Assembly (NCBI GenBank): GCA_023301245.1
Contig: JALZUV010000044.1
Coordinates: forward strand, 1-61,671
Source: Rickettsiales bacterium
GTDB lineage: Bacteria > Pseudomonadota > Alphaproteobacteria > Rickettsiales > JALZUV01
Direction of reading: 5' to 3'
Length of the DNA: 61,671 nucleotides
How positions within the stretch are numbered: position 1 is the stretch's first letter; each line of letters begins with the position of its first letter. The position numbers and the translations under genes were made by a program. The notes below the pieces were generated by a model, which had not been told where the DNA came from, did not search any database, and worked only from the letters and a program-made list of their open reading frames with translations. Shown one piece after another: positions 5,724 through 50,532 of this stretch.

Positions 5724-6103
5724 CACCTTCGGAAGTCCTAAACGCATCTAACGTATTCGTGGGAGAGGACCCCAAACGGGAAAAACTCACGGCTATCTAC
5801 CCTATCATGGAGTACGGCCTAGCAGATAAAAAGATATCTAGCGGTATGGGAGCCTTGTTCTCCCTTTGCGAACACGTAGAGCTAAATTACGACCAACTGA
5901 TATCCCTACATCAAACATTCTCGGAAGGGGACGCGGGCCTTACCTACGCAGTCTTACGCGCATATGATATAGGATACTCACCATTGTCTACGCTAAAGAC
6001 AATGGTCGAAACGAAAGACTACTCTTCAATAGACCAAGAAAAACTATGGAGCTTTATAAATGCTGTACTCCCATCCATCGGACGAGACCTCGCCGTACAC
6101 TAA
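5720..6103 (+). CDS. hypothetical protein
   Basis: 127-aa ORF with a 4-nt overlap on the previous gene. Confidence 0.5.
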   Translation: MTPSEVLNASNVFVGEDPKREKLTAIYPIMEYGLADKKISSGMGALFSLCEHVELNYDQLISLHQTFSEGDAGLTYAVLRAYDIGYSPLSTLKTMVETKDYSSIDQEKLWSFINAVLPSIGRDLAVH

Positions 6104-6167
6104 GCCAGCCTTATTCTTTATGACTACGCCTATACTTTCATTCAACACAGTGTACGAGGGGACTACT

Positions 6168-6848: not shown

Positions 6849-6854
6849 TAACTA

Positions 6855-6866
6855 GCAAACGTTTGC
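6855..6866. repeat. palindrome copy 5 (intergenic after amidase)
   Basis: Exact match. Confidence 0.95.
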
Positions 6867-6904
6867 AAAATCGGGTAATCTCCACGAAACAGCGGAGCTA
6901 CCCC

Positions 6905-7552
6905 ATGCCTATCAAAAAGCGCAAAGCGCAAGATCAAACTCTCATACACCCCATGCTTAGGCAGGGACGGAAAACAGCAATACTCTACAGGTATATCGCA
7001 GCCACAGGGGAAAAGGGCACCACGTCTTGGCACCTAAAGCAACAGCCTGTCTTTCACCCGCAGTTACTAGCCGACCTCATAAATGAGGGCCTTGTATCCA
7101 AGCACGACCAGCCACCTAGCGTAAGTCCGTACAAACTATATACCGCCAACAAACATGCTGAGAGCTTAACACAGCGTGTAGAGATACAGATACAGGTTGA
7201 GGTCTACGAAAACGAGAACGGAATGATAGGAGTACGCTGCTCACCTATGGACACCCTAACGAACATAGTAAGCGACGGCGCGCTGCATATTCACTCAAAA
7301 ACACTTAAGTTCAAATTGCCTCGCAGATGCGAGAGTGCAGGGACAAAAGTCTTCGGAAAAGTTAAGCTTGACGACGAGGCCGAATTGTTAGATGGTATAG
7401 TAATTATCAAATCATCTGGCGACTTTAAAGCGCCACAAGTTATCGAAGGCGTTGCGTCTAGGAAGGTAAAAAGTGAAGCTTTCAGTGTTCGGCATACGAA
7501 ACTTGAGGGGCCAGCCATACGGGGACTACTCACATACAGTCCAAGTAATTAA
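6905..7552 (+). CDS. hypothetical protein, possible winged-helix DNA-binding N-terminus
   Basis: Starts MPIKKRKAQ with a GGAG SD. RQGRKTAILYRYIAATGEKGTTSWHL...LINEGLV looks wHTH-like (weak). Confidence 0.45.
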   Translation: MPIKKRKAQDQTLIHPMLRQGRKTAILYRYIAATGEKGTTSWHLKQQPVFHPQLLADLINEGLVSKHDQPPSVSPYKLYTANKHAESLTQRVEIQIQVEVYENENGMIGVRCSPMDTLTNIVSDGALHIHSKTLKFKLPRRCESAGTKVFGKVKLDDEAELLDGIVIIKSSGDFKAPQVIEGVASRKVKSEAFSVRHTKLEGPAIRGLLTYSPSN

Positions 7553-32130: not shown

Positions 32131-35100
32131 ATGGCTAAACGTATAGACGAGAATGGCTCATTTATAGCTAGCGGTGCAGGCGGCGGCAAGTCGGGGGGTT
32201 CCAGTTCTCCTACAGAAGCACCTAACAGCCTCAAAGCCAAAAGTGTTGCTCGTATATTAGAGATAATCGCCGAGGGACCTATTAAAGGCCTCGTAGATGG
32301 GGACAAATCCCTATTCTTCAACAAAGTGCCTTATGCTAACGCAGATGGTGGATTAAACTTTGACGGCATATCCTACGCGTTCCTCAATGGTTCCCCTGAC
32401 CAAGAGGCCTTAGAGGGCTTCACAGATATAACCACGACCATATCCGTATCTACAGAGGTGGATAGAAGCACATCTGTCATACGTCGTATAACAAACCCAG
32501 ACGTAGATACGACAGTTGTCACGGTATCCGTACCTAACCTCACAAAGCTTGATAGTAAAACAGGTGACCTTAACGGGTCTCGTGTAGACGTTGCTGTATA
32601 CGTAAAATCAGACGCAGATGCTTCTGGTAGTGTGTACGTCCGTAAAGTTAGGGACATTATACAGGGTAAGACGACATCCACATATGAGCGTGCCTACAGA
32701 ATTCCGTTGGAGGGGGAAGGGCCTTGGGATATCAAGATGGAGCGTATTACAGCTGACAGTTCGTCTAGTACCTTGCAGAATTCTACATTCTTTACTCGTT
32801 ATTCTGAAATCATATCGCATAAGATTGCCTACCAAGATAGTGTAATCCTCGCGACAGAAGTAGACGCCGAACTATTCGGGTCATCCCCGCCATCACGGGC
32901 TGTTGAAATATACGGTCTTCTTGTAAATTACCCGTCCAACTACGACCCAGACACCCGAACCTACACAGGGCTATGGGATGGTACATTTACCTTCGGTTAC
33001 TGTAACAACCCTGCGTGGGTCCTATGGGATATGCTAACCAGTAGGAAGCATGGTGCGAGGCTACCCGCTGCCTACATAGACAAATGGGGTTTCTACGAGG
33101 TTGCTCAATACTCAGACGAGCTTGTAAGCGATGGACTAGGCGGCACAGAGCCACGCTTCACCTTTAACGGCACAGTACAGACGCGGGAAGATGCTTACAA
33201 AGTCATCCAATCCATCGCGTCTATGATGCGTTCCGCGGCCTACTTCTCGACAGGTCTTATACGCCTATCACAAGACAAGCCAGCGGCTCCCGAAAAACTA
33301 TTCAACCAGACCAATGTCATAGGAGACTTCAACTACTCAGGCACCGCCCGTGCAGCACGCCACACCGTAGCGCAAGTACAATGGGTAAACCCTGAGATAG
33401 ACTACGAGAGCGACATAGAAGTGGTCGAGAACCGAGCAGCTATCTTGAAATACGGATACCGTGCGCTAGACCTTACAGCCTTCGGTACAACGTCACGAGG
33501 GCAAGCCCACAGACAGGGCCGTTACGTCTTGGCGACAGAAGAGCTTGAAAGCGAGATCGTACAATTCAAGGTCGGACAAGATAGCGCAGACCTATTGCCC
33601 GGAGATGTCATTCTCGTAAGTGACCCAAGCCAATCAACTGCCGAGGTCGGGGGCCGAAACATTGGCGCAACCCTAACCACACTATCGCTAGATAGACATA
33701 TCGTCGTAGCCCCTACGAAGAATTGCTTCATCACATTCCATCTAGCCGATGGGACGCCTCACGTATCCGCTATCACGAGTGACAACGAGAGTACGAACAT
33801 AGTCACCTTGGTAACGCCAATACCAGACGCGGACTTACTGCCCGACGCACTAAGCTCTATATGGGTTATGTATAACGACGACATAGAGCCTAAGCCGTTC
33901 CGTATTATGGACATAGAAGAAGAGGAACCTAACGAGTATAAAATCGTAGCCTCTCAGTACGCGGAAGAGAAGTTCAATATAGTTGACAACTTCCTTGACA
34001 TTGAAGCGGGGGATAACAGCTATTCCAGCCTCGCCAACCCTACGGCCATTGGCGCAGTAACAGGACTAGACCTATCTTTCCGCTCTCGCTTGCAAGACGG
34101 CAGAGTGCGTATGTACGCCGAGCTTGATTGGGTTCAACCAGACGCCGAGCAAGTGCGCGGCTACGTTGTCTCCTACCAGTACGAAAACAACAACTGGATA
34201 CAATTGCCAGAGGTGCAAACTACAAATATTGAATTGACGGACATCATCGCGGGCGAGTATCGCTTCGTTGTACGTGCCGTTAACATGTTCGGTATCATGT
34301 CCCCTCGTACGGCCATTGACGGGAACTTCGGTAATGCAGACGCGTCTACGCAGGCCCCTATCAGCAACCTATTATCGGAGCTTGGTAACACATTATTCGA
34401 AGGAGCTGATTGCACCGTATCGTGGAATTCCGAGAGTATCGTATCCGATGCGACAGACGTTACGGATGGTAAAGACCCATTCTTTAAACACTTCCTCATA
34501 GACGTTTACAATGCTGAGGGGACAAAGCTTCTACGCAGTGAGACAACCAAGGACACACACTTCAACTACACCTACGCTATGAACGAAGCGGATAACGGCA
34601 GTGCCGTACGGTCTTTCCAAATTCGCGTAGCCTTCGTTGATGTGAACGACAACACTTCCACCTACCTTTCGCAAACGTTTGCGAACCCACAAGCAAATAA
34701 CCCTACGGTTACCGCAGAGGGTCAGAACGGACGAGTGACACTGACTTATCCTAGGCCACTGCACCCTGACTTCTCTGGTCTTAGAGTTCACGCATCCACG
34801 TCACAAGACTTCACGGTTAACGAAGGTAGCATAGTCTATGAGGGGTCGGGAGACCCAAGCTGGCCAGCACCTAGCGGAACCCCCGTCTATTACCGCTACG
34901 CAGCATACGATAGTTTCGGTAAGGACGGCCTTGTATACAGTGCAGAGGGCGTAGTAACCACAACGGCAGTGTCCCTTGACGACATGCCCGTAGAATTCTC
35001 GATCATCGAAGGAGAAATAGCGGCAGCGCAAGCCCAGCTAGACGACCTAGAAGAGGCCTATGGTGACAGCCAAAGTGCAGCCGCATCCACAGCAGCAGCC

Positions 35101-38100
35101 GAAGCCGCGAGAGACGCCAGTGAGACGGCTAGGGATAACTCGCAACTGGCCCAGACTATTACGGAAGCCGCACGAGACCAAGCATCTGATATACTGGATG
35201 ACGTAGAAATAGCCGAGGGTGCAACCTACACAGCTCGTGATGCAGCACAACTTAGTGAGGCGGCAACGGCGGCGGCGGAGGTCGCAGCGGTAGCAGCTAA
35301 GAACCAAGCGGATACCATACTAGGTAACGTACAGGCACTAGAGACTTCCGCTGCCGCAGCCGAGGCCGCAGCCGAGGCGTTCTCTAACAGCTCGTCAACG
35401 AGTGCGGGTGCATCGGAGACTTCTCGTATAGCCGCAGATGCGGTACAAACAGATTTAGAAGCTTCTGACAAATACACAGAGCTTCACAGGGTAACGTCTA
35501 GTACAGATCGTTGGGTCCCACCCGCAGACGGTACACACACGCACCAAATCATAGGCGATGTAATACAATTCACATCCACTTTGGGTACTACGCAAAGCAA
35601 TTCCGCTGCGGGTAATACAGGCGGGGTCTACTATGAACTGCCTACAGATATAGAAACAGAGATAACGGGCGAGGATATACAGATTGTATTCTCTTTTGAA
35701 GCACCTAGCAGCAATGCGTCAACTAATGTAGGTGTAGCCTATTCTACGCATTCCGTAGGCAATACCGCATGGCGGGTACATCCTATATCCGCAACAGGGA
35801 TAACGGAGATTGCGCTTGATTACGCCGTTGGCTCTACTAATACAATATTAGGGGACTTTATAGGTATAATCGGCGACGCCGACGGGCTAGGCAATTCTGT
35901 AAATCTACATAGCGTCAAGTTATACGTAAAAGGAAGCTACTTGGATGTGGGCGCTCGACTAGCAGCCACCGCCGCCGCCACAGCAGAAGAGGGTACATTC
36001 GCTGCCGCGTCCGCAGATGAAAGCGAACAATTCTCTATAGCAGCGACTACGGCTAAGTTAGCAGCGGAAACAGCACAAGCCGCCGCTACCGTATCCGAAA
36101 CTAATGCAACACAGAGTGAGACAAACGCAGAAGGCTCCGCAGCTACGTCAGCGTCAGAAGCTACGAATTCTGCAAATAGTGCTACGAACGCAGGACAATC
36201 CGCAACAGCCGCAGCTAGCTCCGCATCCACAGCAGCATCCGAGGCTACTGACGCATCACAGAGCGCGACAGCCGCTGATACTGCAAAACTAGAGGCCGAG
36301 ACAGCACAGGCAGCGGCAGCTATATCTGCTACCAACGCGGCAGGTTCCGAGACAAACGCAGAAGGCTCCGCAGCTACGTCAGCGTCAGAAGCTACGAATT
36401 CTGCAAATAGTGCTACGAATTCTGGCAATTCAGCAAGCGCGTCTGCGACGAGTGCGTCTATAGCGGCGACAGAAGCTACTGACGCATCACAGAGCGCGAC
36501 AGCCGCTGATACCGCAAAACTAGAGGCCGAGACAGCACAGGCAGCGGCAGTAGTAGCTCGTGACGACGCCGCCGTAAGTGAGACAAACGCCGCAGGGTCT
36601 GCATCATCTGCCTTAGTAAGTGAGGGAATATCCGTTACAGCAGCCTTGGATAGCCTATACGAAGCTATACAGCTATTCCCTTCTACTTTTGAAAACGGTG
36701 ACAACTACTGGACAAATACGCTGTCTGGACTTGCAGGAACCCAAGCAGGGGTAAGCGACACAGATGATATGTCTTTAATACCAGACCTTGACAAAGGGAC
36801 TGTCTTAGAGATAGGGGCCACAAATAGTAATAAACATGTAGCGCCTAAAGGTAGACTTCGCCCATACGTCGGGCAAGTATTCCGCCTAGAGTGGGATGCT
36901 AAATATGTGGGGACAGATCAACCCGCATCACCTAGGGTGTTCTCTACGCAAGTGCGTACGGTGGACGCCGATGGGTCGTCCTTTGGTAGTAACACAGTTG
37001 GACCCACTAAAGAGTTCACGGCTGTTAACACATGGGAAACATTTTATGCGGATATCGCTATATCTAGCAGTACGGCCTCCGCACCTTTCGTATTTCCTTT
37101 TATATTCACTAACTCCAACCATAAGGAGACGGGAGATACCATTCTCGTATCTAGGTTCACTATTAGCGACGTTACGTCCGAAGTGGCAGCAAGCACAGGA
37201 GCGGCAGCGGCAGCTATATCCGCTACCAACGCGGCAGCAAGTGCTACCGCTGCGGGCCAGTCGGCAAGCTCTTCGCAAACGTTTGCGAACAACGCCAGCA
37301 CAAGTGCGGGCCAAGCCACCACAAGCGCGGGACAAGCGGCAGCAAGTGAAACCAACGCAGACAGCGCACAAGCCGCAGCGGCTACCAGTGCAACAAACGC
37401 CGCGACTAGCGAAAACAACGCAGGACAATCCGCAACAGCCGCAGCTAGCTCCGCATCCACAGCAGCCTCCGAGGCTACTGACGCAGCACAGAGCGCAAGC
37501 GCATCGGAGACCTCCCAGTTAGCAGCGGGGACCTCACAGGCAGCGGCCAATATATCACAAGGCGCAGCCGCAACGAGTGAGACAAACGCCGCAGGGTCTG
37601 CGACCTCCGCCGCGCTAGACGCCAGCTTAGCCGTATCTGCGAAGAACGACGCTGCAACAAACTCCGCGTTAAATTCGGGTGACATGTCTTTAGGCGGTGT
37701 ATACACACGTCACATACTACACGGGACTACGTACTCTTTCGCAACGATAGCAGCGGATAACAAAGTATATGTAAACGACGTACTTAACACTACGTTACAG
37801 CCGTCTACTACAACGAATATTGAATTGAGTTCTGGGGACGTTATAGAGACTGATAGTCCGTGCGCTATAGTATCCACAAGTGGTGAGGTCGCGCCATCTT
37901 CCGTACACGCAGGAACCAAGTTTGTATCGTACTCTAACAGGTCCAACCATGATCGTCGTATTACCGTAAAGGCATTATCTGACTGTGCCGTAGATTTCTT
38001 CCACTACAACCTAACAGATAGCTCAGGTCAGCAAGACGTATCAGGCGCACCAAGCTTCTCCATAGCGTTAGTAGCAGGGCAGATATACGATAGTGTTGTT

Positions 38101-41100
38101 GACTTCTCTGATGGAAACGACGACCTAGTGTCTCGTATAAAATCATCTGGCCCTATTATCGTGCGCGTGTCCTCTAATGGTAATGGGTCAGATAGGGAAT
38201 TATTACTACCAGCTAAACCAAGGGCTATACTTGCTCGGGGTGGTTCAGCAAATACATACGCATTTGATTACAACGACACCATAGAGCTGTACGCATCGGA
38301 CGGGGCTGGTAACTTAACAAGCACCACTTATGCGCCTTCTGGTGTTTATAATGCCGCCATTGGTGACGGAGACGGGTTAGGGATGAATAACTCTCTACCA
38401 CTAGACGCATTAGGTGATACCTATGTTCTGCCACACAATATGTCCGATTACCGTATTGTAACAACAGAACCCGATAACACTATCATAGTGTCTAATAGTA
38501 CGGGTATATTGTTTGAGCACACTAGCCCAAGTACAACAAGTTTTGAGACGCCATTCGCCGTAGAGTACGGACCTCAAGCAGGCACTCAAACAGGGCAGGA
38601 AACTGGTCCTATTACAGTCATAGGAGACAAACCATTCTTCCTGCGAACTAACCATTCAACTACCCAAGGAGAGTATTCTGTTATCGGGTGGAGACAAGCA
38701 TCCGCAAACGCATCATCCGCGACGGGTAGTATACAGGCCGCACTAGAGGCTACGGCGGCGGCTAGTTCTGCAACTACAGCAATAGCAGAGGCTACAGACG
38801 CAGCAAGCCAAGCGGCAATCGCAACAACAGAGCGCATAGCGGCGGAGAGTGCGCGAGATAATGCTGCGGGTTCCGCAAGCGCAGCGTCTACGTCAGCGTC
38901 TAGTGCAGCAACCCAAGCGGCCAATGCGGGTAACAGCGCAACGGCAGCGTCTACCAGTGCAAACACAGCGTCCACATCTGCTGGAAACGCGTCGGTTAGT
39001 GAAGGTAACGCAGCAACTAGCGAGACAAACGCAGCTGGCTCAGCTACGTCCGCAGCGGCTAGCCAAGCATTAACGGCCAACCTATACGGAGATACAATTG
39101 ATGCAGTAAACACGATAACGTGGTCTGATTACCCTAATGTTGAAACATGGAGCGCTAACTCGACAGGGTTACCAGAGGATAAAAATGACCTATCAGTAGC
39201 GCTAGATAATGATGGCGGCTATAGTGTGGTTGGTTCTAGTCATGCCGTAGGTCCGAAACATATTTTCGACGCTAAACGTATTTACGAGGTAACGGTAGAC
39301 GTGGATATTACTGCCGACCCGAACGGCACTGTATGCAGGATACAAATAGCCGTTTACGCGTTAGACGCATCTGGCGTAGCCGTAGACTCAAATCCGTGGA
39401 TGATACTACAGGACGGTGCCAACAGAGGGACGGGGAGACGGACGTATACCCAACGCGTAACAGCGCTAAGCTCAGCACCTTCTGGTGTGTTCATACATAA
39501 TGATAGTGCGTTAGCGGAGAAAATATCAATACGCGGTGGTTGGAGATCAGGCGACAGCGCAACAGAGGGTACAATACATTCCTTAAAAATAAGAGACGTG
39601 ACACAAGAGGTTTATGCCGAGGTAGAAGCAACAGCGGCAGCTACGTCCGCAAGTGCAGCCGCTGTAAGTGCCATGTCTTCGCAAACGTTTGCAAACACGT
39701 CGTCTACCCAAGCAAACAACGCTAGTACCAGTGCAGGACAAGCGAGTGTAAGCGCCACGCAATCGGCCACAGCTGCTACCAACGCTGCCGATAGTGAGAG
39801 CGCGGCAGCAGCAAGTGAAACGGCTGCGTCTGGGTTCTCGTCTGCCGCGTCAACGCAAGCAACAAACGCCAGCACAAGCGCGAGCCAAGCGGGCGTAAGT
39901 GCTACACAGAGTGCCGCGTCTGCTACCAACGCGGCGGGGTCTGCTACACAAGCCTCCGCTTCCGCACTAGAGGCTATTAACGCATCTGTGGGTAGGAACC
40001 TTCTCGAAGACGCCCGTATACTAGAGAATACGTGGAGTGCGGGACCCTTCGTAACGCCGACAGCCACGGCGGCTTACTATGAGTGGTCAAGCAACAGCGT
40101 CAATAACTGGGCTGTTGAGGGCTTTAGAACCTACGCTATACAGCAATTAAATACCGATAGCGTAGGTTCTAATGACGCGGTATCTAAAAGGGTTGCCGTT
40201 GAGGCTGGTAATTACTACGAAGGTTCCATAGATAGCGGTGCACATCGTTGTGACGCGGAAATAAGAATGCAGTGGCTAGACATAGACGGTAATTCCTTAG
40301 GTTATGTACGTCCTGCAAGTGACGCACAAAGCCGAAACAAGTCGGAGGCTGGCGGCGGCTTACAGCTGGAAGATTGGAAACGTATATGGGTATCAGCCCA
40401 AGCGCCCGCTAGTGCGGCATTCTGTAGACTGCATCTACGTAAGTTTGCTACAAACGCAGGACAAGTAAACAGTTACCTATTCCTATCTCGCCCGATGATA
40501 GCTGTGTCTAAGGCGGGGCAAACGGAAGCAGGGGAATGGACTGACGGTAGTAACTCTGCGACCATTGAAAACCTATATAGCGTTACGGCCACAAACACGG
40601 CCAGTGCAGCTAGTTTGCAACAACAGGTAACGACTAACCTTGCCTCTGCCGCCATAACACAGACAGCGGTCACTAACTTAGAGAATAAGATAGACGCGGC
40701 AGTAATCACCGTGTCTGCTAGCGCGGGGGATGCTAATACGGCTAGCATGACAATAGGTGCAACTAAGGCAGATGGCTCCTTATTCAACTACGTCTTGTTC
40801 GAAACAGACCAGCTAGGGTTTAAAGCTGCGAACGGACAAGGCTTCACGGCTACAGGGATGGGTATCTATAAAGATATACCAACTATTGATGTCAGCTCCG
40901 ACGGCAACTGGATGCTCGTACAAGGCGTAAACTTCGGTAGCGGTAGTGATCTACTTTATTGGTACGGACCTAATGTAGGCTCCCCCGATAACTGTACGCG
41001 ACAGAACGGTAACCAAGTTAACACAGCTGACGGTGAGATTTGGCAATTTGGGGCAAAGCTCGGAGGGACTGCCGTTAATACCAACAAGTCCATATCAAGC

Positions 41101-41538
41101 CAAGGCACAGTCACTGATACAGGTATAGGGTCTAATGGTAATATTAAAACAATCACAGCTACGACTACTGCTACCGCTGGACGATCGTATTACATATATG
41201 GGGCGGGTAATGCGACCTCAGGAACTACTACGTACAGTTCCGGGTCGGCTACCGTTGATGGGGAGTATCGTATAGCTGGAGGTACTTGGTCTGATGTAGA
41301 CAACATAGGGCCTGCAACAATATCTGGCATCGTTACGTCCGTTATTCACGAATTCGACCATGAATTTGACGCGTACTTTGTTTCCGAGACTTGGACTGCA
41401 TCTATATCAGAAAGCCAAAGTATATTAACTAACGCAGTTAATAATTATGAAGCTAAGGCTACGGGGTCCCGTACTAAACCATCTGGGTTCGGCAATGACA
41501 ATATATCAGTACGCATAGTTACAACAGAGCCGGGGTAG
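32131..41538 (+). CDS. host-specificity/central tail fibre protein (lambda J-like core plus ~2170-aa modular extension)
   Basis: N-terminus GGGKSGGSSSPTEAPNSLKAKSVARILEIIAEGPIKGLVDG and an FN3-like segment are typical of J. From about aa 960, alternating Ala/Ser/Thr-rich helical linkers and globular modules. Confidence 0.85.
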   Translation: MAKRIDENGSFIASGAGGGKSGGSSSPTEAPNSLKAKSVARILEIIAEGPIKGLVDGDKSLFFNKVPYANADGGLNFDGISYAFLNGSPDQEALEGFTDITTTISVSTEVDRSTSVIRRITNPDVDTTVVTVSVPNLTKLDSKTGDLNGSRVDVAVYVKSDADASGSVYVRKVRDIIQGKTTSTYERAYRIPLEGEGPWDIKMERITADSSSSTLQNSTFFTRYSEIISHKIAYQDSVILATEVDAELFGSSPPSRAVEIYGLLVNYPSNYDPDTRTYTGLWDGTFTFGYCNNPAWVLWDMLTSRKHGARLPAAYIDKWGFYEVAQYSDELVSDGLGGTEPRFTFNGTVQTREDAYKVIQSIASMMRSAAYFSTGLIRLSQDKPAAPEKLFNQTNVIGDFNYSGTARAARHTVAQVQWVNPEIDYESDIEVVENRAAILKYGYRALDLTAFGTTSRGQAHRQGRYVLATEELESEIVQFKVGQDSADLLPGDVILVSDPSQSTAEVGGRNIGATLTTLSLDRHIVVAPTKNCFITFHLADGTPHVSAITSDNESTNIVTLVTPIPDADLLPDALSSIWVMYNDDIEPKPFRIMDIEEEEPNEYKIVASQYAEEKFNIVDNFLDIEAGDNSYSSLANPTAIGAVTGLDLSFRSRLQDGRVRMYAELDWVQPDAEQVRGYVVSYQYENNNWIQLPEVQTTNIELTDIIAGEYRFVVRAVNMFGIMSPRTAIDGNFGNADASTQAPISNLLSELGNTLFEGADCTVSWNSESIVSDATDVTDGKDPFFKHFLIDVYNAEGTKLLRSETTKDTHFNYTYAMNEADNGSAVRSFQIRVAFVDVNDNTSTYLSQTFANPQANNPTVTAEGQNGRVTLTYPRPLHPDFSGLRVHASTSQDFTVNEGSIVYEGSGDPSWPAPSGTPVYYRYAAYDSFGKDGLVYSAEGVVTTTAVSLDDMPVEFSIIEGEIAAAQAQLDDLEEAYGDSQSAAASTAAAEAARDASETARDNSQLAQTITEAARDQASDILDDVEIAEGATYTARDAAQLSEAATAAAEVAAVAAKNQADTILGNVQALETSAAAAEAAAEAFSNSSSTSAGASETSRIAADAVQTDLEASDKYTELHRVTSSTDRWVPPADGTHTHQIIGDVIQFTSTLGTTQSNSAAGNTGGVYYELPTDIETEITGEDIQIVFSFEAPSSNASTNVGVAYSTHSVGNTAWRVHPISATGITEIALDYAVGSTNTILGDFIGIIGDADGLGNSVNLHSVKLYVKGSYLDVGARLAATAAATAEEGTFAAASADESEQFSIAATTAKLAAETAQAAATVSETNATQSETNAEGSAATSASEATNSANSATNAGQSATAAASSASTAASEATDASQSATAADTAKLEAETAQAAAAISATNAAGSETNAEGSAATSASEATNSANSATNSGNSASASATSASIAATEATDASQSATAADTAKLEAETAQAAAVVARDDAAVSETNAAGSASSALVSEGISVTAALDSLYEAIQLFPSTFENGDNYWTNTLSGLAGTQAGVSDTDDMSLIPDLDKGTVLEIGATNSNKHVAPKGRLRPYVGQVFRLEWDAKYVGTDQPASPRVFSTQVRTVDADGSSFGSNTVGPTKEFTAVNTWETFYADIAISSSTASAPFVFPFIFTNSNHKETGDTILVSRFTISDVTSEVAASTGAAAAAISATNAAASATAAGQSASSSQTFANNASTSAGQATTSAGQAAASETNADSAQAAAATSATNAATSENNAGQSATAAASSASTAASEATDAAQSASASETSQLAAGTSQAAANISQGAAATSETNAAGSATSAALDASLAVSAKNDAATNSALNSGDMSLGGVYTRHILHGTTYSFATIAADNKVYVNDVLNTTLQPSTTTNIELSSGDVIETDSPCAIVSTSGEVAPSSVHAGTKFVSYSNRSNHDRRITVKALSDCAVDFFHYNLTDSSGQQDVSGAPSFSIALVAGQIYDSVVDFSDGNDDLVSRIKSSGPIIVRVSSNGNGSDRELLLPAKPRAILARGGSANTYAFDYNDTIELYASDGAGNLTSTTYAPSGVYNAAIGDGDGLGMNNSLPLDALGDTYVLPHNMSDYRIVTTEPDNTIIVSNSTGILFEHTSPSTTSFETPFAVEYGPQAGTQTGQETGPITVIGDKPFFLRTNHSTTQGEYSVIGWRQASANASSATGSIQAALEATAAASSATTAIAEATDAASQAAIATTERIAAESARDNAAGSASAASTSASSAATQAANAGNSATAASTSANTASTSAGNASVSEGNAATSETNAAGSATSAAASQALTANLYGDTIDAVNTITWSDYPNVETWSANSTGLPEDKNDLSVALDNDGGYSVVGSSHAVGPKHIFDAKRIYEVTVDVDITADPNGTVCRIQIAVYALDASGVAVDSNPWMILQDGANRGTGRRTYTQRVTALSSAPSGVFIHNDSALAEKISIRGGWRSGDSATEGTIHSLKIRDVTQEVYAEVEATAAATSASAAAVSAMSSQTFANTSSTQANNASTSAGQASVSATQSATAATNAADSESAAAASETAASGFSSAASTQATNASTSASQAGVSATQSAASATNAAGSATQASASALEAINASVGRNLLEDARILENTWSAGPFVTPTATAAYYEWSSNSVNNWAVEGFRTYAIQQLNTDSVGSNDAVSKRVAVEAGNYYEGSIDSGAHRCDAEIRMQWLDIDGNSLGYVRPASDAQSRNKSEAGGGLQLEDWKRIWVSAQAPASAAFCRLHLRKFATNAGQVNSYLFLSRPMIAVSKAGQTEAGEWTDGSNSATIENLYSVTATNTASAASLQQQVTTNLASAAITQTAVTNLENKIDAAVITVSASAGDANTASMTIGATKADGSLFNYVLFETDQLGFKAANGQGFTATGMGIYKDIPTIDVSSDGNWMLVQGVNFGSGSDLLYWYGPNVGSPDNCTRQNGNQVNTADGEIWQFGAKLGGTAVNTNKSISSQGTVTDTGIGSNGNIKTITATTTATAGRSYYIYGAGNATSGTTTYSSGSATVDGEYRIAGGTWSDVDNIGPATISGIVTSVIHEFDHEFDAYFVSETWTASISESQSILTNAVNNYEAKATGSRTKPSGFGNDNISVRIVTTEPG
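34671..34682. repeat. palindrome copy 15 (J-like gene; SQTFA)
   Basis: Exact match; TTCGCAAACGTTTGCGAA 18-bp palindrome. Confidence 0.95.
36067..36528 (+). repeat. 231-bp (77-aa) in-frame tandem duplication inside the J-like gene
   Basis: Copy 1 at 36067-36297 and copy 2 at 36298-36528, with long identical runs (e.g. ACAAACGCAGAAGGCTCCGCAGCTACGTCAGCG at 36121 and 36352). Confidence 0.9.
37275..37286. repeat. palindrome copy 16 (J-like gene; SQTFA)
   Basis: Exact match; 18-bp palindrome. Confidence 0.95.
37420..37496 (+). repeat. dispersed third copy (75/77 nt) of part of the 231-bp unit (matches 36190-36266)
   Basis: GCAGGACAATCCGCAACAGCCGCAGCTAGCTCCGCATCCACAGCAGC... with 2 mismatches. Confidence 0.85.
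39681..39692. repeat. palindrome copy 17 (J-like gene; SQTFA)
   Basis: Exact match. Confidence 0.95.
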
Positions 41539-43586: not shown

Positions 43587-43598
43587 GCAAACGTTTGC
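43587..43598. repeat. palindrome copy 20 (intergenic, 3 nt before a terminator hairpin)
   Basis: Exact match. Confidence 0.95.
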
Positions 43599-43601
43599 AA
43601 A

Positions 43602-43633
43602 GGGTCGGGGGTTTACGCCTCTGGCCCTTTTTT
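43602..43633 (+). terminator. intrinsic terminator
   Basis: 10-bp GC-rich stem (3 G-U pairs), 43602-43611 paired with 43618-43627, followed by TTTTTT. Confidence 0.6.
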
Positions 43634-43684
43634 AATGCGTGTATATGTGCTAGAGCGCACGGGTACACAGTAAGGACCCCCGAC

Positions 43685-44125
43685 ATGATTACACGATTAC
43701 TAGGATTTGCAGGGACAGCCAAAGGATTAGCATCCATAGGAACCGCAACGTTTATAATAGGCTTAGGCGCGGGCGGATGGGTTATAAACAAACACCACCA
43801 AGGCAAAGAGAAGCGGGTAGTAAGCCAAGCTTTCGACAGGCTGGCCGAACAAACCGACCTCACCCAACGTATGAACAAGGTTTTGCTAGCCTCTAACTCA
43901 CAAGCCCAGCGAGACATAACAGAGCTTGCCAAACAACAACGCGGGACCGCCCTAAGTGGCACCGTCTTACGCAAACAACTAGGAGACGCCTTAAATGACA
44001 TTATCGACCCGACACCTTGTGCTTGTACTGACACTATCCTTCTTGACGGGGTGCAGCAGTCTATTTCCAAAGCATATACCGAACCCCTCGTTAATCTTAC
44101 CACCAGACCCGCCACAAATAGATAG
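43685..44125 (+). CDS. i-spanin (Rz-like)
   Basis: N-terminal TM LASIGTATFIIGLGAGGWVI followed by a charged coiled-coil-like periplasmic domain. Contains the start of a lipoprotein gene in another frame. AAGGA SD. Confidence 0.55.
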   Translation: MITRLLGFAGTAKGLASIGTATFIIGLGAGGWVINKHHQGKEKRVVSQAFDRLAEQTDLTQRMNKVLLASNSQAQRDITELAKQQRGTALSGTVLRKQLGDALNDIIDPTPCACTDTILLDGVQQSISKAYTEPLVNLTTRPATNR

Positions 44126-44423
44126 CAGTCTTAAAGAGGTTCCGCCAAAACTCGTAGACCCAACTGACAGGCCCGACGCCCTAACAGCAACAGCAGTTGA
44201 AACACTGGCGGGGGCGGACCTTTCTACCAAGGAAGGCCAAGAGGTAGCCACATTCACTGTACGCCTCTTAGCAAAGGAACATACTGATCTAGTCGTGCTA
44301 TACCGCGTCCTGCGTAAGCAATTAGACAACCTTGTAAAAGCTACAGAGAGACAGGAGCAATGGTATAAGGACCTCGTTGTAATTCTAGAAAAATACGAGA
44401 AAGAGGTAAACGCCATAAAGTAA
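43995..44423 (+). CDS. o-spanin (Rz1-like lipoprotein), overlapped architecture
   Basis: Signal peptide plus lipobox LVLVLTLSFLTG|C, then a Pro-rich segment. AGGAG SD. Starts inside the i-spanin gene and extends beyond it. Confidence 0.55.
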   Translation: MTLSTRHLVLVLTLSFLTGCSSLFPKHIPNPSLILPPDPPQIDSSLKEVPPKLVDPTDRPDALTATAVETLAGADLSTKEGQEVATFTVRLLAKEHTDLVVLYRVLRKQLDNLVKATERQEQWYKDLVVILEKYEKEVNAIK

Positions 44424-45289: not shown

Positions 45290-45322
45290 TACCCCGTCTG
45301 TAATAGGATGGGGTATTTTTTT
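45290..45322 (+). terminator. intrinsic terminator
   Basis: TACCCCGTC-N8-GATGGGGTA followed by TTTTTTT. Confidence 0.7.
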
Positions 45323-45327
45323 GCCTA

Positions 45328-45339
45328 GCAAACGTTTGC
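45328..45339. repeat. palindrome copy 21 (intergenic, overlaps -35 box)
   Basis: Exact match. Confidence 0.95.
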
Positions 45340-45364
45340 TTAGCCGTGGAATATGCGCTATATA
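45336..45364 (+). promoter_or_regulatory. sigma70-like promoter TTGCTT-17-TATATA(AT) upstream of the AAA+ gene
   Basis: The -35 box is formed by the 3' end of palindrome copy 21. Confidence 0.55.
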
Positions 45365-45399
45365 ATAGCTATCCACACCGCTAACAAACAGGAGCCATC

Positions 45400-47118
45400 A
45401 TGGCGCAACAAAATTCAGCCGCCGCTTTAATGCAAAAACTAAGTTTGCTAAACGCAACGTCTATCGCAGGTATCGTCGTACGTACCCGAGAGGCGGATAG
45501 AGCGAGAGAGATCGTCCAAGAATGGGCAAACGACACGCACCTACAGTACCACACATGGGATTGCGTTCGGGGCGTCTGTACGTACCCTGACTTGCCCGTA
45601 ACGGACGGTGAAGAGATCATCGACTTATCCGAAGATACGGATTACCTCACACCGAAAGGGTCCATCAAGAATACAGCCTCGTTCGACAAAGGCTTCGATT
45701 ACTTCTTCGATAAGACTGCCAGCGACGGACAAGCGCAACGGTCCAAGGTTATCGTATTCGAGTTCGGGCATATCCCCTTAAAGGCACCGCCTGCCCAACA
45801 ACGTTTACGGACGTTCGTAGAGGCCATGCGACACGACGCTCATAGAGCCGTCTTTATCCTGCCACCTCACGCCGATATCCCCGATGACATTTCCGACTAC
45901 GTTGAAATCATCGACCTTAAGACGCCGAACCACGACGAGCTGTTAGAGGCGTATACCGACATACTGGAAACCAACCTAACGGAAGGTAACATTATCCCTA
46001 AGTTCTCGCCCGAAGAGAACAAAGCCATCGTGTCTAACGGCGCGGGGATGACAGCCAACGAATTCGATATAGCTATCAGTACCGCGTGTTCCAACATTAT
46101 CGACATGGCGGATGCGGACGACAAGTTCAAAGCTAAGAATATCACTACCAAGATGTTTTACGACGAAATCATGGAGCGTAAGATTGCCGTCGTTAAGTCT
46201 ACGCATTTGCTAGAGCTTATGCCCGAGGGTAACATGGACGACATAGGGGGATTGGACGTGCTCAAAGAGTACCTAATCGACACCTCAGAGACGTTTATGA
46301 ACCCCGACGCGGCCAAGTTCGGTATAGACAAGCCTAAGGGCTTTCTATGCGTAGGACCTCCCGGAACTGGTAAGTCAGCCGTCGCTAAAGCAACCGCAGC
46401 AGCCGTCCAAGTACCGCTTATCAAATTCGATATAGGTAAGGCATTCGGTAAATACGTCGGGCAGTCAGAGGGCAATATGCGCGGCGCACTAGCTATGGTC
46501 GAAGACATGGCACCCTGCGTCCTCTTTATCGACGAGATTGATAAATCTATGGGAGCTAGTGGCGGTACGTCGGATGGCGGAACATCGGGCCGTGTATTCG
46601 GTAGCCTACTCACATGGATGCAAGAGAACGACGCGGATGTATTGATCGTTGCCACGGCTAACAACCCCCAGCTATTGCCGCCTGAGCTTGTGCGTAAAGG
46701 ACGCTTTGACGTAATCTGGGCGGTAGACCTGCCTAACTTCACAGAACGCCAAGCCATCCTTGCTATCCATTCCAAGAAGCGAGGGCATAAGCTTAAGCCA
46801 TCCTTCATAGACGCCATTGCGAAGACGACGCAAGGCTTCTCGGGGGCCGAGCTAGAAGATATCATCAAGTCCTCACTCAAGGTTGACTTTAAAGCGGGTA
46901 ACCCTACTATAACACTGGGTACATTAAAGCACACGGTGCATAGGTCCCAGCCGCTTTCGCTGACCTACCCAGATAGGGTTGCGGCACAATCAGAGTGGGC
47001 CAAAAGCCATGCGGTTTCTGCCAGTACGCCCGAGGGGGAAACTGTCGATAAGCCAAAAGTAAAAACGGCGGGACGGAAGCGTAGGTTGTCACCTAAGCGC
47101 AACACGTCAAGTAACTAG
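45400..47118 (+). CDS. classical AAA+ ATPase (Ycf46/CDC48-like AAA domain in C-terminal half)
   Basis: Walker A GPPGTGKS, Walker B VLFIDEIDK, second region of homology ATNNPQLLPPELVRKGRFD. Confidence 0.9.
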   Translation: MAQQNSAAALMQKLSLLNATSIAGIVVRTREADRAREIVQEWANDTHLQYHTWDCVRGVCTYPDLPVTDGEEIIDLSEDTDYLTPKGSIKNTASFDKGFDYFFDKTASDGQAQRSKVIVFEFGHIPLKAPPAQQRLRTFVEAMRHDAHRAVFILPPHADIPDDISDYVEIIDLKTPNHDELLEAYTDILETNLTEGNIIPKFSPEENKAIVSNGAGMTANEFDIAISTACSNIIDMADADDKFKAKNITTKMFYDEIMERKIAVVKSTHLLELMPEGNMDDIGGLDVLKEYLIDTSETFMNPDAAKFGIDKPKGFLCVGPPGTGKSAVAKATAAAVQVPLIKFDIGKAFGKYVGQSEGNMRGALAMVEDMAPCVLFIDEIDKSMGASGGTSDGGTSGRVFGSLLTWMQENDADVLIVATANNPQLLPPELVRKGRFDVIWAVDLPNFTERQAILAIHSKKRGHKLKPSFIDAIAKTTQGFSGAELEDIIKSSLKVDFKAGNPTITLGTLKHTVHRSQPLSLTYPDRVAAQSEWAKSHAVSASTPEGETVDKPKVKTAGRKRRLSPKRNTSSN

Positions 47119-47127
47119 GAGCTAGAC

Positions 47128-47766
47128 ATGCACATAAACTTACTATTCGGTAGGGCCACACTTAAAGAGGGCAGCATGTCACTGTTTGCCTTCTACAGGG
47201 AAAGCCTAGGGGCCAAGGTCGAGATGCCTATTAAGAACGCTGCTATGCAGGGTGATATGGGTATTGGGGAGGCATTTGGCTTTAAGAACACCGCCGCGTC
47301 CCGCGTAGGCTCGGACAAACTGGGCTTCTGGGCTACTTGCACCTACGACGTTAAGGAGAATTGCCTCATACGCTTAAACTGCCAGAGGCACATAAAACCC
47401 CTTGCACAAACAAGTGGACTAAGTTTGCCTAAGCGACACCAAATCTTCCTAAGGCCTAGACGCCTTGCCGCGCTCGTAGAGCTGAAATTCGAACTTGTCC
47501 CGTCAGATGCAGCCAATATACAATACGGTCAAATAACAGGTAACTTCGATATCCTCCGACCAGAGGACTTCGACGAGCTTGGTATTAAGGACTTGTCCCG
47601 CCATAATAGGCAGATTGACGACTTCGACTTAGACGAGCTGAAAGAGTTCGTTACGATTACCGTAAAGGAGAAAGCCGCTGCGCCGCCGCAGAAGCTTAAG
47701 GTCTCTAAAACTTTCGGCGGCAAAACCATTGTAAAGCGCCGTGGGCGCAGAACAATTCGCAAATAG
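47128..47766 (+). CDS. hypothetical protein
   Basis: 212 aa with a TAGGAG SD. Basic C-terminus KRRGRRTIRK. Confidence 0.5.
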   Translation: MHINLLFGRATLKEGSMSLFAFYRESLGAKVEMPIKNAAMQGDMGIGEAFGFKNTAASRVGSDKLGFWATCTYDVKENCLIRLNCQRHIKPLAQTSGLSLPKRHQIFLRPRRLAALVELKFELVPSDAANIQYGQITGNFDILRPEDFDELGIKDLSRHNRQIDDFDLDELKEFVTITVKEKAAAPPQKLKVSKTFGGKTIVKRRGRRTIRK

Positions 47767-47782
47767 CTTTAGGAGCAATAGC

Positions 47783-48253
47783 ATGTCACACAACGTAACA
47801 GTCAAGGGCGCGGTATTCGACAATATCGAACTCATGGAAGACGCCGTAGCGTCATTGGCATCGGAGGGGGTTAACGTATCCTTCGTTACTGAGAACGCTA
47901 CAATTCGCGGATGGAGGGGTCAAAAGTCCACCGTTGACGCGGCAATTCTGCTAGCGGACAGCAAGTATGATATCGGGTTCAAACAAAACTCGGAAGGCCT
48001 ATATGAAGCGTTCGGAGAGGATTACCTCACGAAGGGTCACGGCGCTCACCTATCCCCTATCGGCCAGCATACCCCGTATGTTAACCAAGAGGGGGAGGAA
48101 GTCGTACCCGACACCGCAACCCGACTGCTAGGCAAGTTCGCGATGCACTACAACGTTTGCAAGGCCGAGCGCCAAATGGAAGCCGAAGGGCTATCCTGCC
48201 AGCGTGAGACGCAGGACGACGGCACAATCCAACTGATTGCCACTCAGTATTAA
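47783..48253 (+). CDS. DUF1257 (Ycf35-like) protein
   Basis: MSHNVTVKGAVFDNIELMEDAV...IRGWRGQKSTVDAAILLADSKYDIGF follows the DUF1257 pattern (MSH start, RGY.GQ, YDIGF). AGGAG SD at ATG 47783. Confidence 0.6.
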   Translation: MSHNVTVKGAVFDNIELMEDAVASLASEGVNVSFVTENATIRGWRGQKSTVDAAILLADSKYDIGFKQNSEGLYEAFGEDYLTKGHGAHLSPIGQHTPYVNQEGEEVVPDTATRLLGKFAMHYNVCKAERQMEAEGLSCQRETQDDGTIQLIATQY

Positions 48254-48259
48254 ACCCTC

Positions 48260-48271
48260 GCAAACGTTTGC
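48260..48271. repeat. palindrome copy 22 (intergenic)
   Basis: Exact match. Confidence 0.95.
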
Positions 48272-48293
48272 GAACACAGTATAGGAGGCCATC

Positions 48294-48494
48294 ATGGCTA
48301 AACAGATTATTATGAGCTTCGACGTAGGCGGTGCAATGCACGTTGACGTGGACGGCGTAAAAGGCGAAGAGTGTAAAACACTCACACAGGGAATTCTTGC
48401 GGAGTTCTCTACGTCGGAGACAACGGACAGCAACGATAAGCCCGACCTGCATGAGGCAGAGGCCGAAATGGAAACAGCCGACAGAGGCTGGTAA
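48294..48494 (+). CDS. DUF2997-like small protein
   Basis: IIMSFDVGGAMHVDVDGVKGEECKTLTQGILAEF resembles the DUF2997 G..G..C..lT core. Directly follows the DUF1257 gene. Confidence 0.5.
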   Translation: MAKQIIMSFDVGGAMHVDVDGVKGEECKTLTQGILAEFSTSETTDSNDKPDLHEAEAEMETADRGW

Positions 48495-48500
48495 GTGGGG

Positions 48501-48526
48501 GAACCTTAGCGAACCTTAGCGAACCC
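48501..48526 (+). repeat. direct repeat GAACCTTAGC x2 + GAACCC
   Basis: Lies in the 157-nt intergenic region, enclosed by GTGGG...CCCAC. Confidence 0.8.
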
Positions 48527-48651
48527 ACAAAGGGGCCAGTGTAGCGGTGTGGATAACCTGTTGCGCTGGCCCCTAACGCATAAAGGGCATAGACATGGAC
48601 CAACCTTACGACTTCCCCTACTATGCACTACACCACGGAGAGTAACCAAGC

Positions 48652-49389: not shown

Positions 49390-49489
49390 CGGAATGCTTA
49401 CTGTGTATCCTGCCCACCATGACCTTCCTATGCGTCAGTGGCTTGAAGCCCTCGTCTACCTCGCTCGGTGGGCGGGGGCTTCTTTATGT
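49390..49489 (+). ncRNA. candidate ~100-nt small RNA or regulatory leader (promoter to hairpin)
   Basis: Bounded by the 49354 promoter and the 49444 hairpin. No convincing ORF, since the only ORF here starts with GTG inside the promoter. Confidence 0.3.
49444..49489 (+). terminator. 16-bp hairpin + UUUAU (terminator or attenuator in leader)
   Basis: GAAGCCCTCGTCTACC-TCGCTC-GGTGGGCGGGGGCTTC (3 G-U pairs) followed by TTTAT. Confidence 0.45.
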
Positions 49490-49572
49490 GCGCTCATAAC
49501 CCCCTTGCCTTATCCTGCAAATTACCCCTATTATGCAACGGAGCGAATACACACCGCATAGGAGCAAACACA

Positions 49573-49998
49573 ATGGACCGCATGGTAATATCGGTAGGGA
49601 TAAACGGGGATGCCCAACACCTACTCAAAGATAGTTTCTTAAACCCGTTCCCCTCGTCTACACGGGAGATAGATCGGATATCAAACATAGTATTTAATGC
49701 GCCGTCGCAAACGTTTGGTATACAACTGCTAGGCAATCTAGCTAAATGGAACGACACCGACTTGGGGTACGAGCCTACACTCACACAAGATAATATGAAG
49801 GCTTGCCTCTGCGACATGCACGAAAGCGGTATAGGCAGTTATCTATCTTGCATGAAAAAATTCTATGAGCTGGAAGGTGAGCATAACGAAGAGGCTATTT
49901 GGTACATGAGATTTTCTTCTTATGAAAACGCCGTAGCTATAGAGGTTGAATTTATAAACAACCTTAGACTTTGCGGCTACAAGTTTAGGGCGATATAA
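49573..49998 (+). CDS. hypothetical protein
   Basis: ATG 49573 has an AGGAG SD. The upstream part of track ORF 49468.. lies in a promoter/hairpin leader. Confidence 0.5.
   Translation: MDRMVISVGINGDAQHLLKDSFLNPFPSSTREIDRISNIVFNAPSQTFGIQLLGNLAKWNDTDLGYEPTLTQDNMKACLCDMHESGIGSYLSCMKKFYELEGEHNEEAIWYMRFSSYENAVAIEVEFINNLRLCGYKFRAI
49707..49718. repeat. degenerate palindrome variant GCAAACGTTTGG (in CDS; SQTFG)
   Basis: 11/12 match. Confidence 0.6.
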
Positions 49999-50157: not shown

Positions 50158-50532
50158 ATGCACGAACCTAAGAAAGACGGACCATCCGTCGCGTTTCGTC
50201 ATATCATGCGAGAGTACGCCCAATATCTTACAGGTAATGAACTTGCCGTTTTACTATTCGTGGTAGATCGCACATTCTCCTATGGTAAACACGCAGAGGT
50301 AATACCCCAAAGACACTTCTTAGAGGGCGTGTGGTCGGGCGATACCTGCCTACATGGGCCACTCAAAATGGGCGTCCGCACGTTAGAGAACAGCATTAAA
50401 TCACTAAGGGAGCGGGGGTATTTAGTCACACAACGTAAGGGTAACCAGCCTACCGCATACATGGTAGAGCTGGGATTGCGACCTAGTAACGTCGTACGAC
50501 TGCCACCCAGACGGAATAGGAGGCGTATATGA
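50158..50532 (+). CDS. replication initiator, phage O-like N-terminal winged-helix type
   Basis: LTGNELAVLLFVVDRTFSYGKHAEVIPQRHF...RTLENSIKSLRERGYL resembles the phage replication protein O N-terminal domain. Iterons start at its stop codon. Confidence 0.5.
   Translation: MHEPKKDGPSVAFRHIMREYAQYLTGNELAVLLFVVDRTFSYGKHAEVIPQRHFLEGVWSGDTCLHGPLKMGVRTLENSIKSLRERGYLVTQRKGNQPTAYMVELGLRPSNVVRLPPRRNRRRI

Follow-up and report, generated by a model that had tools for sequence, protein, structure and literature searches.

The stretch of DNA analyzed here, hereafter the window, is the 61,671-nucleotide (nt) contig JALZUV010000044.1, from an assembly attributed to a Rickettsiales bacterium (GCA_023301245.1). 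At positions 45400-48494 this DNA, which is that of a tailed phage, carries four consecutive, tightly spaced open reading frames (ORFs) on the + strand, which encode an AAA ATPase, a protein of 212 amino acids (aa) and members of the DUF1257 and DUF2997 families. In the following list, pI stands for isoelectric point, HMM for hidden Markov model and AF2 for AlphaFold2.

45400..47118, + strand: classical AAA ATPase, 572 aa (Pfam, PHROG and solved-structure matches, alignment)
47128..47766, + strand: 212-aa basic protein, pI 9.8, unnamed family (ORF, family HMM, AF2 model)
47783..48253, + strand: DUF1257 (Ycf35-like) protein, 156 aa, acidic, pI 4.75 (Pfam, alignments)
48294..48494, + strand: DUF2997 protein, 66 aa, acidic, pI 4.2 (sub-threshold Pfam match, homologues, alignments)

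The DUF1257 and DUF2997 genes form a tightly linked pair which recurs beside one specific AAA family over deep divergence, with changed spacing and changed order. An earlier note on this DNA had read the four genes as a classical AAA ATPase with its AAA domain in the C-terminal half, an unassigned protein, a DUF1257 protein and a DUF2997-like protein, and had considered both DUFs to be without assigned function. The searches reported below agree with these identifications, and no functional assignment was found in the papers examined on DUF1257, DUF2997 and ycf35. The composition of the module is undescribed in the literature searched for DUF1257 and DUF2997, where no AAA partner is mentioned, and published phage genomes annotate these genes as 'AAA-ATPase' and 'hypothetical protein'.

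The AAA ATPase

Pfam PF00004 matches residues 316-443 of the ATPase (E = 3.8e-32, 111.9 bits for a cutoff of 21.2). AAA_lid_3 gives a sub-threshold match, and the protein matches phrog_8638, a family of unknown function, from end to end (E = 2.4e-121). Within the domain, Walker A reads GPPGTGKS and Walker B reads FIDEID; the pore loop is KYVG, and LPPELVRKGRFD makes up the second region of homology (SRH). Walker A, the DE of Walker B, the sensor-1 residue N421 and the SRH arginines R432 and R435 are invariant across the aligned phage homologues, as is the pore-loop glycine, the position before it being Y, W, F or L. In about 124 of 146 relatives the loop has [VIL]-G after a hydrophobic or aromatic residue, and the loop of the window reads K-Y-V-G-Q-S-E, like those of Cdc48 D2 and Vps4. 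The lid domain is followed by a conserved EWA..NA.PAS helix and then by a basic tail (pI 11). The closest solved structures are the D2 domains of Cdc48, VAT and p97 (E = 3e-64). Residues 1-270 form a non-catalytic N-terminal domain, whose profile returned nothing significant from the PDB. Its weak matches to RFC subunits (E = 0.2-0.5) fit, and do not establish, a degenerate AAA-like module; a match of the same profile to a de novo helix bundle was judged spurious.

The relationship of this protein to characterized AAA ATPases is one of shared core and divergent surroundings. Cdc48/p97/VAT D2, PAN, FtsH and Vps4 have in common with the phage ATPase the Walker A and B motifs, the SRH arginine fingers and the K-Y-V-G-x-S-E pore loop, and the long N-terminal region ahead of a single active AAA domain is also shared with the Cdc48/PAN/FtsH/Vps4 group. 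Nevertheless, it comes nowhere near the family cutoff of any of the NCBIfam models CDC48, FtsH, PAN, IteA and Mpa, which places the ATPase outside these named families. Unlike Cdc48 (125 bits for a cutoff of 803), it has only one recognizable ATPase domain, and its N-terminal 270 aa lack a significant match to Cdc48 N or D1. Cdc48-type motors rely on small dedicated cofactors, but the phage partner proteins are unrelated to UBX, Ufd1-Npl4 and proteasome subunits. Neither does the protein qualify as a proteasome-activating AAA of the PAN/Mpa type: its PAN score is 123 bits for a cutoff of 500, its C-terminus (...SPKRNTSSN) has no HbYX-type docking motif, and the Pfam and PHROG scans detected no peptidase family among the neighbouring genes. 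The AAA core is similar to that of IetA/IteA from the IetAS defence system (PADLOC IetA, E = 3.6e-27; NCBIfam IteA, E = 2.9e-25), yet this match is limited to the ATPase core (89 bits for an IteA cutoff of 510), an IetS-like protease partner is missing, and the gene belongs to a phage and not to a host defence locus. The earlier note had also labelled the ATPase 'Ycf46-type', which denotes proteins of about 500 aa with the AAA domain in the C-terminal half; the label was not confirmed. The C-terminal placement agrees with it, and relatives of about 500 aa are encoded on bacterial chromosomes (see below), but the phage proteins add the basic C-terminal tail.

The DUF1257 and DUF2997 proteins

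The DUF1257 gene starts at the ATG at position 47783, behind AGGAG, and its product begins with MSHNV; the GTG at 47741 given in the ORF list is not the real start. The protein matches PF06868 with 29.9 bits (cutoff 22.2) over profile positions 9-58 of 103 only, and its syntenic homologues score 24.6-36.8 bits across most of the profile. Among 34 phage relatives M1-S2-H3 is nearly invariant, and L25, D63, G65, G117, Y123 and G136 are conserved. The same 'MSH' begins essentially all Ycf35 proteins (PMC13060386).

The DUF2997 protein of the window scores 18.4 bits against PF11211, under the cutoff of 24.1. Its positional homologues in five phages pass this cutoff (24.5-38.9 bits), a family HMM made from these homologues recovers the window protein at E = 8e-15, and BLASTP aligns it with the Aeromonas HJ05 protein (4e-7). 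Its membership in the family is thus founded on comparative evidence and not on its own Pfam score. The family has a core made of a beta-hairpin and a helix, in which G13, G24, C27 and T31 are invariant; the alignment of 37 sequences gives the consensus KxIxVxIxPDG..V.....G..G..C..AT..IE.ALG, with a single invariant cysteine. Behind the core comes an acidic linker, in which KP[ED] is followed by an aromatic residue; the window protein has KPD and a C-terminal tryptophan there. This tryptophan was dropped as a family feature because it is conserved in 6 sequences and not in 37.

Neither the DUF1257 nor the DUF2997 profile found a relative among the sequences of solved structures in the PDB, and DUF1257 has no sequence similarity to any peptidase. 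The AAA and 212-aa proteins end in basic tails (pI 11-12), whereas the two DUF proteins are acidic (pI 4.2-4.8). Profile-profile comparison with hhalign detected no remote relationships among the 212-aa family, DUF1257, DUF2997, DUF3150 and the neighbour families c1, c2 and c5.

Cyanobacterial and plastid Ycf35 and DUF2997 belong to the same Pfam families as the phage proteins, Ycf35 has the same N-terminal MSH, and the two genes are adjacent in both cases. The phage DUF1257 proteins differ in being longer, with an insert at about residues 75-115, and in matching the Pfam profile only in part. The neighbour of the pair also differs: it is the AAA ATPase in phages and the ferredoxin Fed7 in cyanobacteria, where the cluster is duf2997-ycf35-fed7 and fed7 encodes a 4Fe-4S ferredoxin (PMC4284462).

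The 212-aa protein

The product of the second gene is mostly beta-strand and has an arginine-rich C-terminal tail that ends in KRRGRRTIRK. It has no match in Pfam, PHROGs or NCBIfam, and its PADLOC match is negligible. Word-indexed protein searches gave only 2 and then 5 relatives, and an exhaustive HMM search was needed to reveal a family of 494 cluster representatives (E <= 1e-3), all of them single-domain proteins of about 200-215 aa. Scans of 123 members found no significant Pfam match and two isolated sub-threshold ones. G8, G138, G198 and R208 are nearly invariant in the family, and the consensus of the tail is RRxRxR.

An AF2 model based on the large family alignment reached a predicted local distance difference test (pLDDT) of 90 and a predicted template-modelling score (pTM) of 0.84. 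Besides a beta-rich core at residues 1-143 it shows three short helices, more strands and the arginine-rich tail, the latter at lower confidence. Foldseek found no analogue of this model in the PDB (best E = 0.1, TM about 0.2), and the family profile retrieved nothing from the PDB sequences. The fold of this newly defined family of about 500 clusters is confidently predicted and has no solved analogue. The immunoglobulin-like Foldseek matches of a first model made from 5 sequences (pLDDT 60) were meaningless and were discarded. In BFVD only uncharacterized phage proteins match the model. Among them is the protein encoded at the same gene position in Pseudomonas phage SM1 (E = 2e-12, TM 0.73-0.77), which confirms the positional homology at 15% identity. 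In a tblastn search of the whole phage collection the 212-aa protein also matches Rhizobium L338C gp051 (5e-7).

Conservation of the module in phages

The DNA of the region has no match among 50,697 phage records. At the protein level, tblastn detects full-length relatives of the ATPase, with 27-37% identity, in Agrobacterium JP1, Aeromonas HJ05, the Rhizobium L338C group, the Rhodobacter RcTiptonus group, SM1/PaMx31-like Pseudomonas phages and the cluster O mycobacteriophages. According to their annotated neighbours, the five Gram-negative groups repeat the same succession of an AAA ATPase and of proteins of 200-250, 125-170 and 65-72 aa. In JP1, HJ05, L338C, RcTiptonus and SM1 this order is kept at pairwise identities of 20-37%, with an additional 319-aa gene inserted in the module of SM1. 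Pfam confirms DUF1257 in three of these five phages and DUF2997 in all five, and all-against-all BLASTP links the four protein families across phages. Three metagenomic contigs, one of them 64 kb long, are close relatives (about 71-72% protein identity); they keep the same order, with RNase H, DnaB and Pol A next.

The linkage was also assessed in 87 viral loci, made up of 80 IMG/VR loci anchored on the AAA family, the window and six GenBank phage loci, whose ORFs were scanned with HMMs from our own alignments. DUF1257 was detected in 39 and DUF2997 in 37 of these loci; both are present in 33, and all four families in 16. Where both DUFs occur, their genes are always on the strand of the AAA gene (33/33) and mostly downstream of it (29/33). 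DUF1257 precedes DUF2997 in 30 of the 33, the order is reversed in two, and in the remaining one (L082, 6541-7122) the two are fused in a single 193-aa ORF which starts with MSH and contains DUF1257 at residues 1-113 and DUF2997 at residues 138-184.

The earlier note had expected DUF1257 and DUF2997 genes to adjoin each other and AAA genes in some phages and in cyanobacteria, and had made its reading depend on conserved synteny. In phages this expectation holds, both in the 33 of 87 loci, which come from many divergent phages, and in the shared order at 20-37% identity. In cyanobacteria only one part of it stands: DUF2997 and ycf35 are indeed adjacent, but the adjacency to an AAA gene was not confirmed, the described neighbour being the fed7 ferredoxin gene (PMC4284462).

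Cellular relatives and alternative partners

With the AAA-specific motif LPPE[LF]xRKGR as its anchor, a scan of genomes hit more than 600 places; the best 80 loci were analyzed, and the statements that follow are limited to them. Full-length AAA relatives are encoded in 79 of the 80. On Mb-scale chromosomes of Planctomycetota, Gemmatimonadota, Armatimonadota and Gammaproteobacteria, the AAA protein of about 500 aa is encoded alone, with no recurrent neighbour. The Fontivita pretiosa protein is 38% identical to the ATPase of the window over 388 aa, including part of the N-terminal domain and the C-terminal WA..PA helix. The AAA-DUF1257-DUF2997 trio is confined to short contigs, which were binned with Myxococcota, Bacteroidota, Planctomycetota and an Asgard archaeon. 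The Asgard-binned contig (L149) has the order DUF1257-DUF2997-AAA, and both DUFs match Pfam strongly (E = 1.6e-22 and 4.7e-18). Six other genome loci (L090, L093, L100, L103, L119, L156), from Shewanella, Photobacterium, Bacteroidia and a Methanomethylophilaceae archaeon, encode an AAA relative followed by an SF1 (superfamily 1)-helicase-like protein of about 1100 aa (AAA_11/AAA_12), and this pair may be a distinct two-gene system.

Other viral lineages surround the same AAA family with different genes. DUF3150, another orphan family (about 330 aa), is encoded directly downstream of it in 13 viral loci (for instance L032, 6519-7532; also L023, L040, L042, L064, L071-L073 and L078), with DUF1257 next in several. 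In the cluster O mycobacteriophages and related contigs (about 18 IMG/VR loci), phrog_11021 and phrog_11784 take the place of the DUF pair. In Mycobacterium phage Firecracker (L005) these are gp99 (phrog_11021, 266 aa, 5715-6515) and gp97 (phrog_11784, 113 aa, 6774-7115), to which the recurrent 280-aa and 116-aa partner families correspond. In a six-sequence search, Firecracker gp97 gave a weak match to the DUF2997 HMM (E = 0.008). With hhalign, no remote homology was found between the alternative partner families and the partners encoded in the window. Since the same AAA recurs with the unrelated DUF3150 or phrog_11021/phrog_11784 sets, the motor is what stays constant in these loci, whereas the small proteins beside it change from lineage to lineage. 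A gene for a Fer4_12/radical-SAM protein of about 200 aa lies within a few kb of AAA-DUF1257-DUF2997 in four viral loci (L019, L035, L039, L050) and six genome loci (L105, L109, L120, L154, L161, L166).

Transcription signals and neighbouring genes

Several signals frame the four genes:

45290..45322, + strand: intrinsic terminator that closes the preceding transcription unit (terminator scan and sequence)
45328..45339, unstranded: 12-bp palindrome GCAAACGTTTGC (one copy), which overlaps the putative -35 box
45336..45366, + strand: putative sigma-70-like promoter (sequence inspection)
48260..48271, unstranded: second local palindrome copy, in the 40 nt that separate the DUF1257 gene from the DUF2997 gene
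48531..48573, + strand: strong RNA hairpin of about 17 bp, 37 nt past the last stop codon (folding)

Successive genes are separated by 9, 16 and 40 nt, and a Shine-Dalgarno sequence lies ahead of each gene. The upstream terminator consists of a stem-loop at 45290-45315 (10-bp stem, 6-nt loop) and a T7 run. The short gaps, the Shine-Dalgarno sequences, the terminator before and the hairpin after make the four genes look like one bounded transcription unit. The hairpin, which has no T-run after it, is likely the 3' boundary or a stabilizer of the transcript; the 166-nt region that contains it folds with a minimum free energy of -56.4 kcal/mol (z-score -2.15). The 157-nt gap after the DUF2997 gene (48495-48651) also contains 2.5 tandem copies of GAACCTTAGC at 48501-48525 and has no Rfam match; the Rfam and tRNA scans of the entire window were empty.

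An upstream promoter is plausible, although weak by consensus. TTGCTT (45336-45341) is separated by 17 nt from TATATA and by 19 nt from a perfect TATAAT (45361-45366), but it agrees with the -35 consensus at only three of six positions, and the consensus promoter scanner did not call it. The number of promoter-like matches within the genes is at chance level (7, for 5.0 +/- 2.1 expected). Regarding the earlier suggestion of a single promoter whose -35 box lies on a palindrome copy, the overlap is real, the box is weak, and a role of the palindrome as a promoter element is not upheld (see below).

The module had been placed between the lysis and the replication blocks of a phage, and its neighbours agree with this position. 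Upstream, the ORFs 43595-44125 and 43995-44423 overlap in different frames, the first with a hydrophobic segment near its N-terminus and the second with a lipoprotein-type signal that contains the lipobox LTGC. This putative i-spanin/o-spanin layout, which no profile match confirms, supports a lysis block just upstream. Downstream, in the window and its relatives, the module directly precedes RNase H, a RepO-like protein, DnaB and Pol A. On its 3' side the window has a member of the unnamed family c5 (about 115-180 aa; 49468-49998) and an ORF (50158-50532) with a sub-threshold N-terminal Phage_rep_O match (22.4 bits, cutoff 28.7). JP1, SM1, L338C, RcTiptonus and many IMG/VR contigs also have c5 downstream, together with a gene of about 390-530 aa that has a similar sub-threshold Phage_rep_O match. 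The recurrence of c5 and the RepO-like gene indicates that the conserved block extends into the replication genes.

Possible functions of the module

The earlier note had supposed an ATP-driven system for host takeover or for DNA or protein remodelling, which is still a conjecture. The best-supported interpretation of these data is that the four genes make up one transcription unit encoding an ATP-driven protein-remodelling machine specific to tailed phages, and we give this interpretation a probability of about 0.5. The most economical mechanism would be a Cdc48-like hexameric remodeller with small-protein cofactors, expressed with the replication genes; the module is, in this respect, an uncharacterized variant of the theme of AAA motors with cofactors. 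The gene content, motifs, conserved linkage and operon boundaries are observed here. From its motifs, and by analogy with Cdc48/VAT D2 and Vps4, we infer that the ATPase would form a hexamer whose central pore, lined by the KYVG loop, would have polypeptide threaded or pulled through it. Its N-terminal 270 residues would be a platform for cofactors or substrates. The near-obligate adjacency, fixed order and one natural fusion of the acidic DUF1257 and DUF2997 proteins indicate that they act as a pair, and the basic, beta-rich 212-aa protein would be a lineage-specific third partner. As dedicated cofactors associated with the ATPase, the small proteins would select, present or regulate its substrate, and the machine would act on a protein complex of the host or the phage as the replication phase begins.

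Several observations weigh against this interpretation. The AAA gene has no detectable DUF1257 or DUF2997 companion in 44 of the 87 viral loci, nor do its cellular relatives of about 500 aa on Mb-scale contigs (best 80 of more than 600). The pairing of the AAA with DUF3150 or with phrog_11021 and phrog_11784 in other lineages also implies that the DUFs are not obligatory for the motor, and the cyanobacterial DUF pair adjoins a ferredoxin gene and not an AAA gene (PMC4284462). Furthermore, the c5 and RepO-like neighbours are syntenic too, so the synteny could largely reflect descent in one broad siphophage lineage. In that case, the AAA gene and the DUF pair would be functionally independent genes at the head of an inherited siphophage replication module. 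The synteny of c5, the RepO-like gene, RNase H and DnaB in the same phages fits this scenario, as do the half of the AAA loci that lack DUFs, the solitary cellular AAA relatives and the cyanobacterial pair described without an AAA. Yet, the adjacency persists at 20-35% protein identity and despite varied intervening genes (none, the 212-aa family, DUF3150, or the 212-aa family plus the 319-aa protein); it also persists with the changed order of L149 and across contigs binned with very distant host phyla. Mere descent seems to us fairly unlikely.

Other scenarios keep a functional link between the genes and differ in the task that they assign to it. The ATPase, targeted by the small proteins, could unfold or disassemble a specific host factor early in infection, such as a nucleoid protein, a complex used in defence or part of the host replication or transcription machinery. 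The module opens the non-structural block, right behind the terminator of the late operon, and has a putative promoter of its own, which would suit anti-defence or host shutoff; accessory partners that vary between lineages are typical of host-virus conflict genes, and the AAA domain resembles IetA in its ATPase core. Nevertheless, the proteins have no similarity to any known anti-defence protein, the PADLOC and NCBIfam matches are far under the cutoffs (IteA as above), and the conservation of the module from alphaproteobacterial to Pseudomonas hosts argues for a general target, which makes this possibility unlikely. Classical AAA unfoldases often partner compartmental peptidases (FtsH, PAN, Mpa), and the AAA domain scores well against the PAN and FtsH models. 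A new ATP-dependent protease could thus be imagined, in which the unfoldase would feed a DUF1257 peptidase, with or without DUF2997, as in HslU-HslV or PAN-20S. The Ser-His of the nearly invariant M1-S2-H3, exposed after removal of the methionine, would serve as the N-terminal nucleophile, and this start is shared with essentially all Ycf35 proteins (PMC13060386). However, DUF1257 resembles no peptidase or solved structure, the ATPase ends in ...KRNTSSN without an HbYX-type motif, and a Ser-His N-terminus could just as well bind a metal or serve for docking; we regard this protease as very doubtful. The cyanobacterial duf2997-ycf35-fed7 cluster with its 4Fe-4S ferredoxin (PMC4284462), the single invariant cysteine of DUF2997 and the radical-SAM genes near the module in four viral and six genome loci could rather evoke a redox or Fe-S unit. 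The phage AAA would then mature or remodel an Fe-S or radical-SAM enzyme of nucleotide metabolism. Yet, the window has no radical-SAM or ferredoxin gene near the module, one cysteine per chain is no cluster-binding motif, and the radical-SAM neighbour occurs in only about 10 of 167 loci; of all these scenarios we find this one the hardest to credit. A bolder extension of the remodelling machine would see AAA, DUF1257 (Ycf35) and DUF2997 as a widespread unrecognized machine, in which the Ser-His protein and its cysteine-bearing partner would form a catalytic or substrate-capturing module on a Cdc48-like motor, for example a new ATP-dependent protease or a protein-modifying complex. We consider such a generalization quite improbable, if somewhat less so than the protease in its strict form.

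The ycf35 (DUF1257) and DUF2997 genes are conserved across cyanobacteria, algal plastids and phages, and the papers examined assign them no function. Their linkage in phages, as a pair, in one case as a fusion, and beside a Cdc48-like motor in a compact operon, turns this conservation into a concrete and testable hypothesis of a motor with its cofactors. It is open to genetic tests in phages that are in culture, among them Pseudomonas SM1 and PaMx31, Rhodobacter RcTiptonus, Agrobacterium JP1 and Rhizobium L338C. If the module were essential for replication or host takeover, it would represent a new class of phage-encoded protein-remodelling system. If a joint AAA-DUF1257-DUF2997 machine were true, it would offer the first functional handle on ycf35, and possibly on ycf46, orphan genes of cyanobacteria and algal plastids.

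Other features of the window

The perfect 12-bp palindrome found ahead of the module and in its last gap occurs throughout the window, in 27 exact copies and one with one mismatch, for 0.1 expected. The copies (e.g. at 1011, 2196, 4226, 45328, 48260 and 60847) are spread fairly evenly, 0.6-4 kb apart, and are often extended to the 18-bp TTCGCAAACGTTTGCGAA. They are found between genes and inside long ORFs, including three within the gene of a 3135-aa tail fibre. A general promoter element was ruled out, as no fixed -10 box lies downstream and many copies are inside ORFs. The palindrome is more likely a protein-binding, nicking, or modification- or restriction-related site. The 3135-aa ORF itself spans 32131-41538; its first 840 residues match phrog_31, the family of the central tail fibre J (E = 1e-218), and are followed by repeated tail-fibre-like segments. 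All called genes of the window are on the + strand, and the AT skew is positive throughout.

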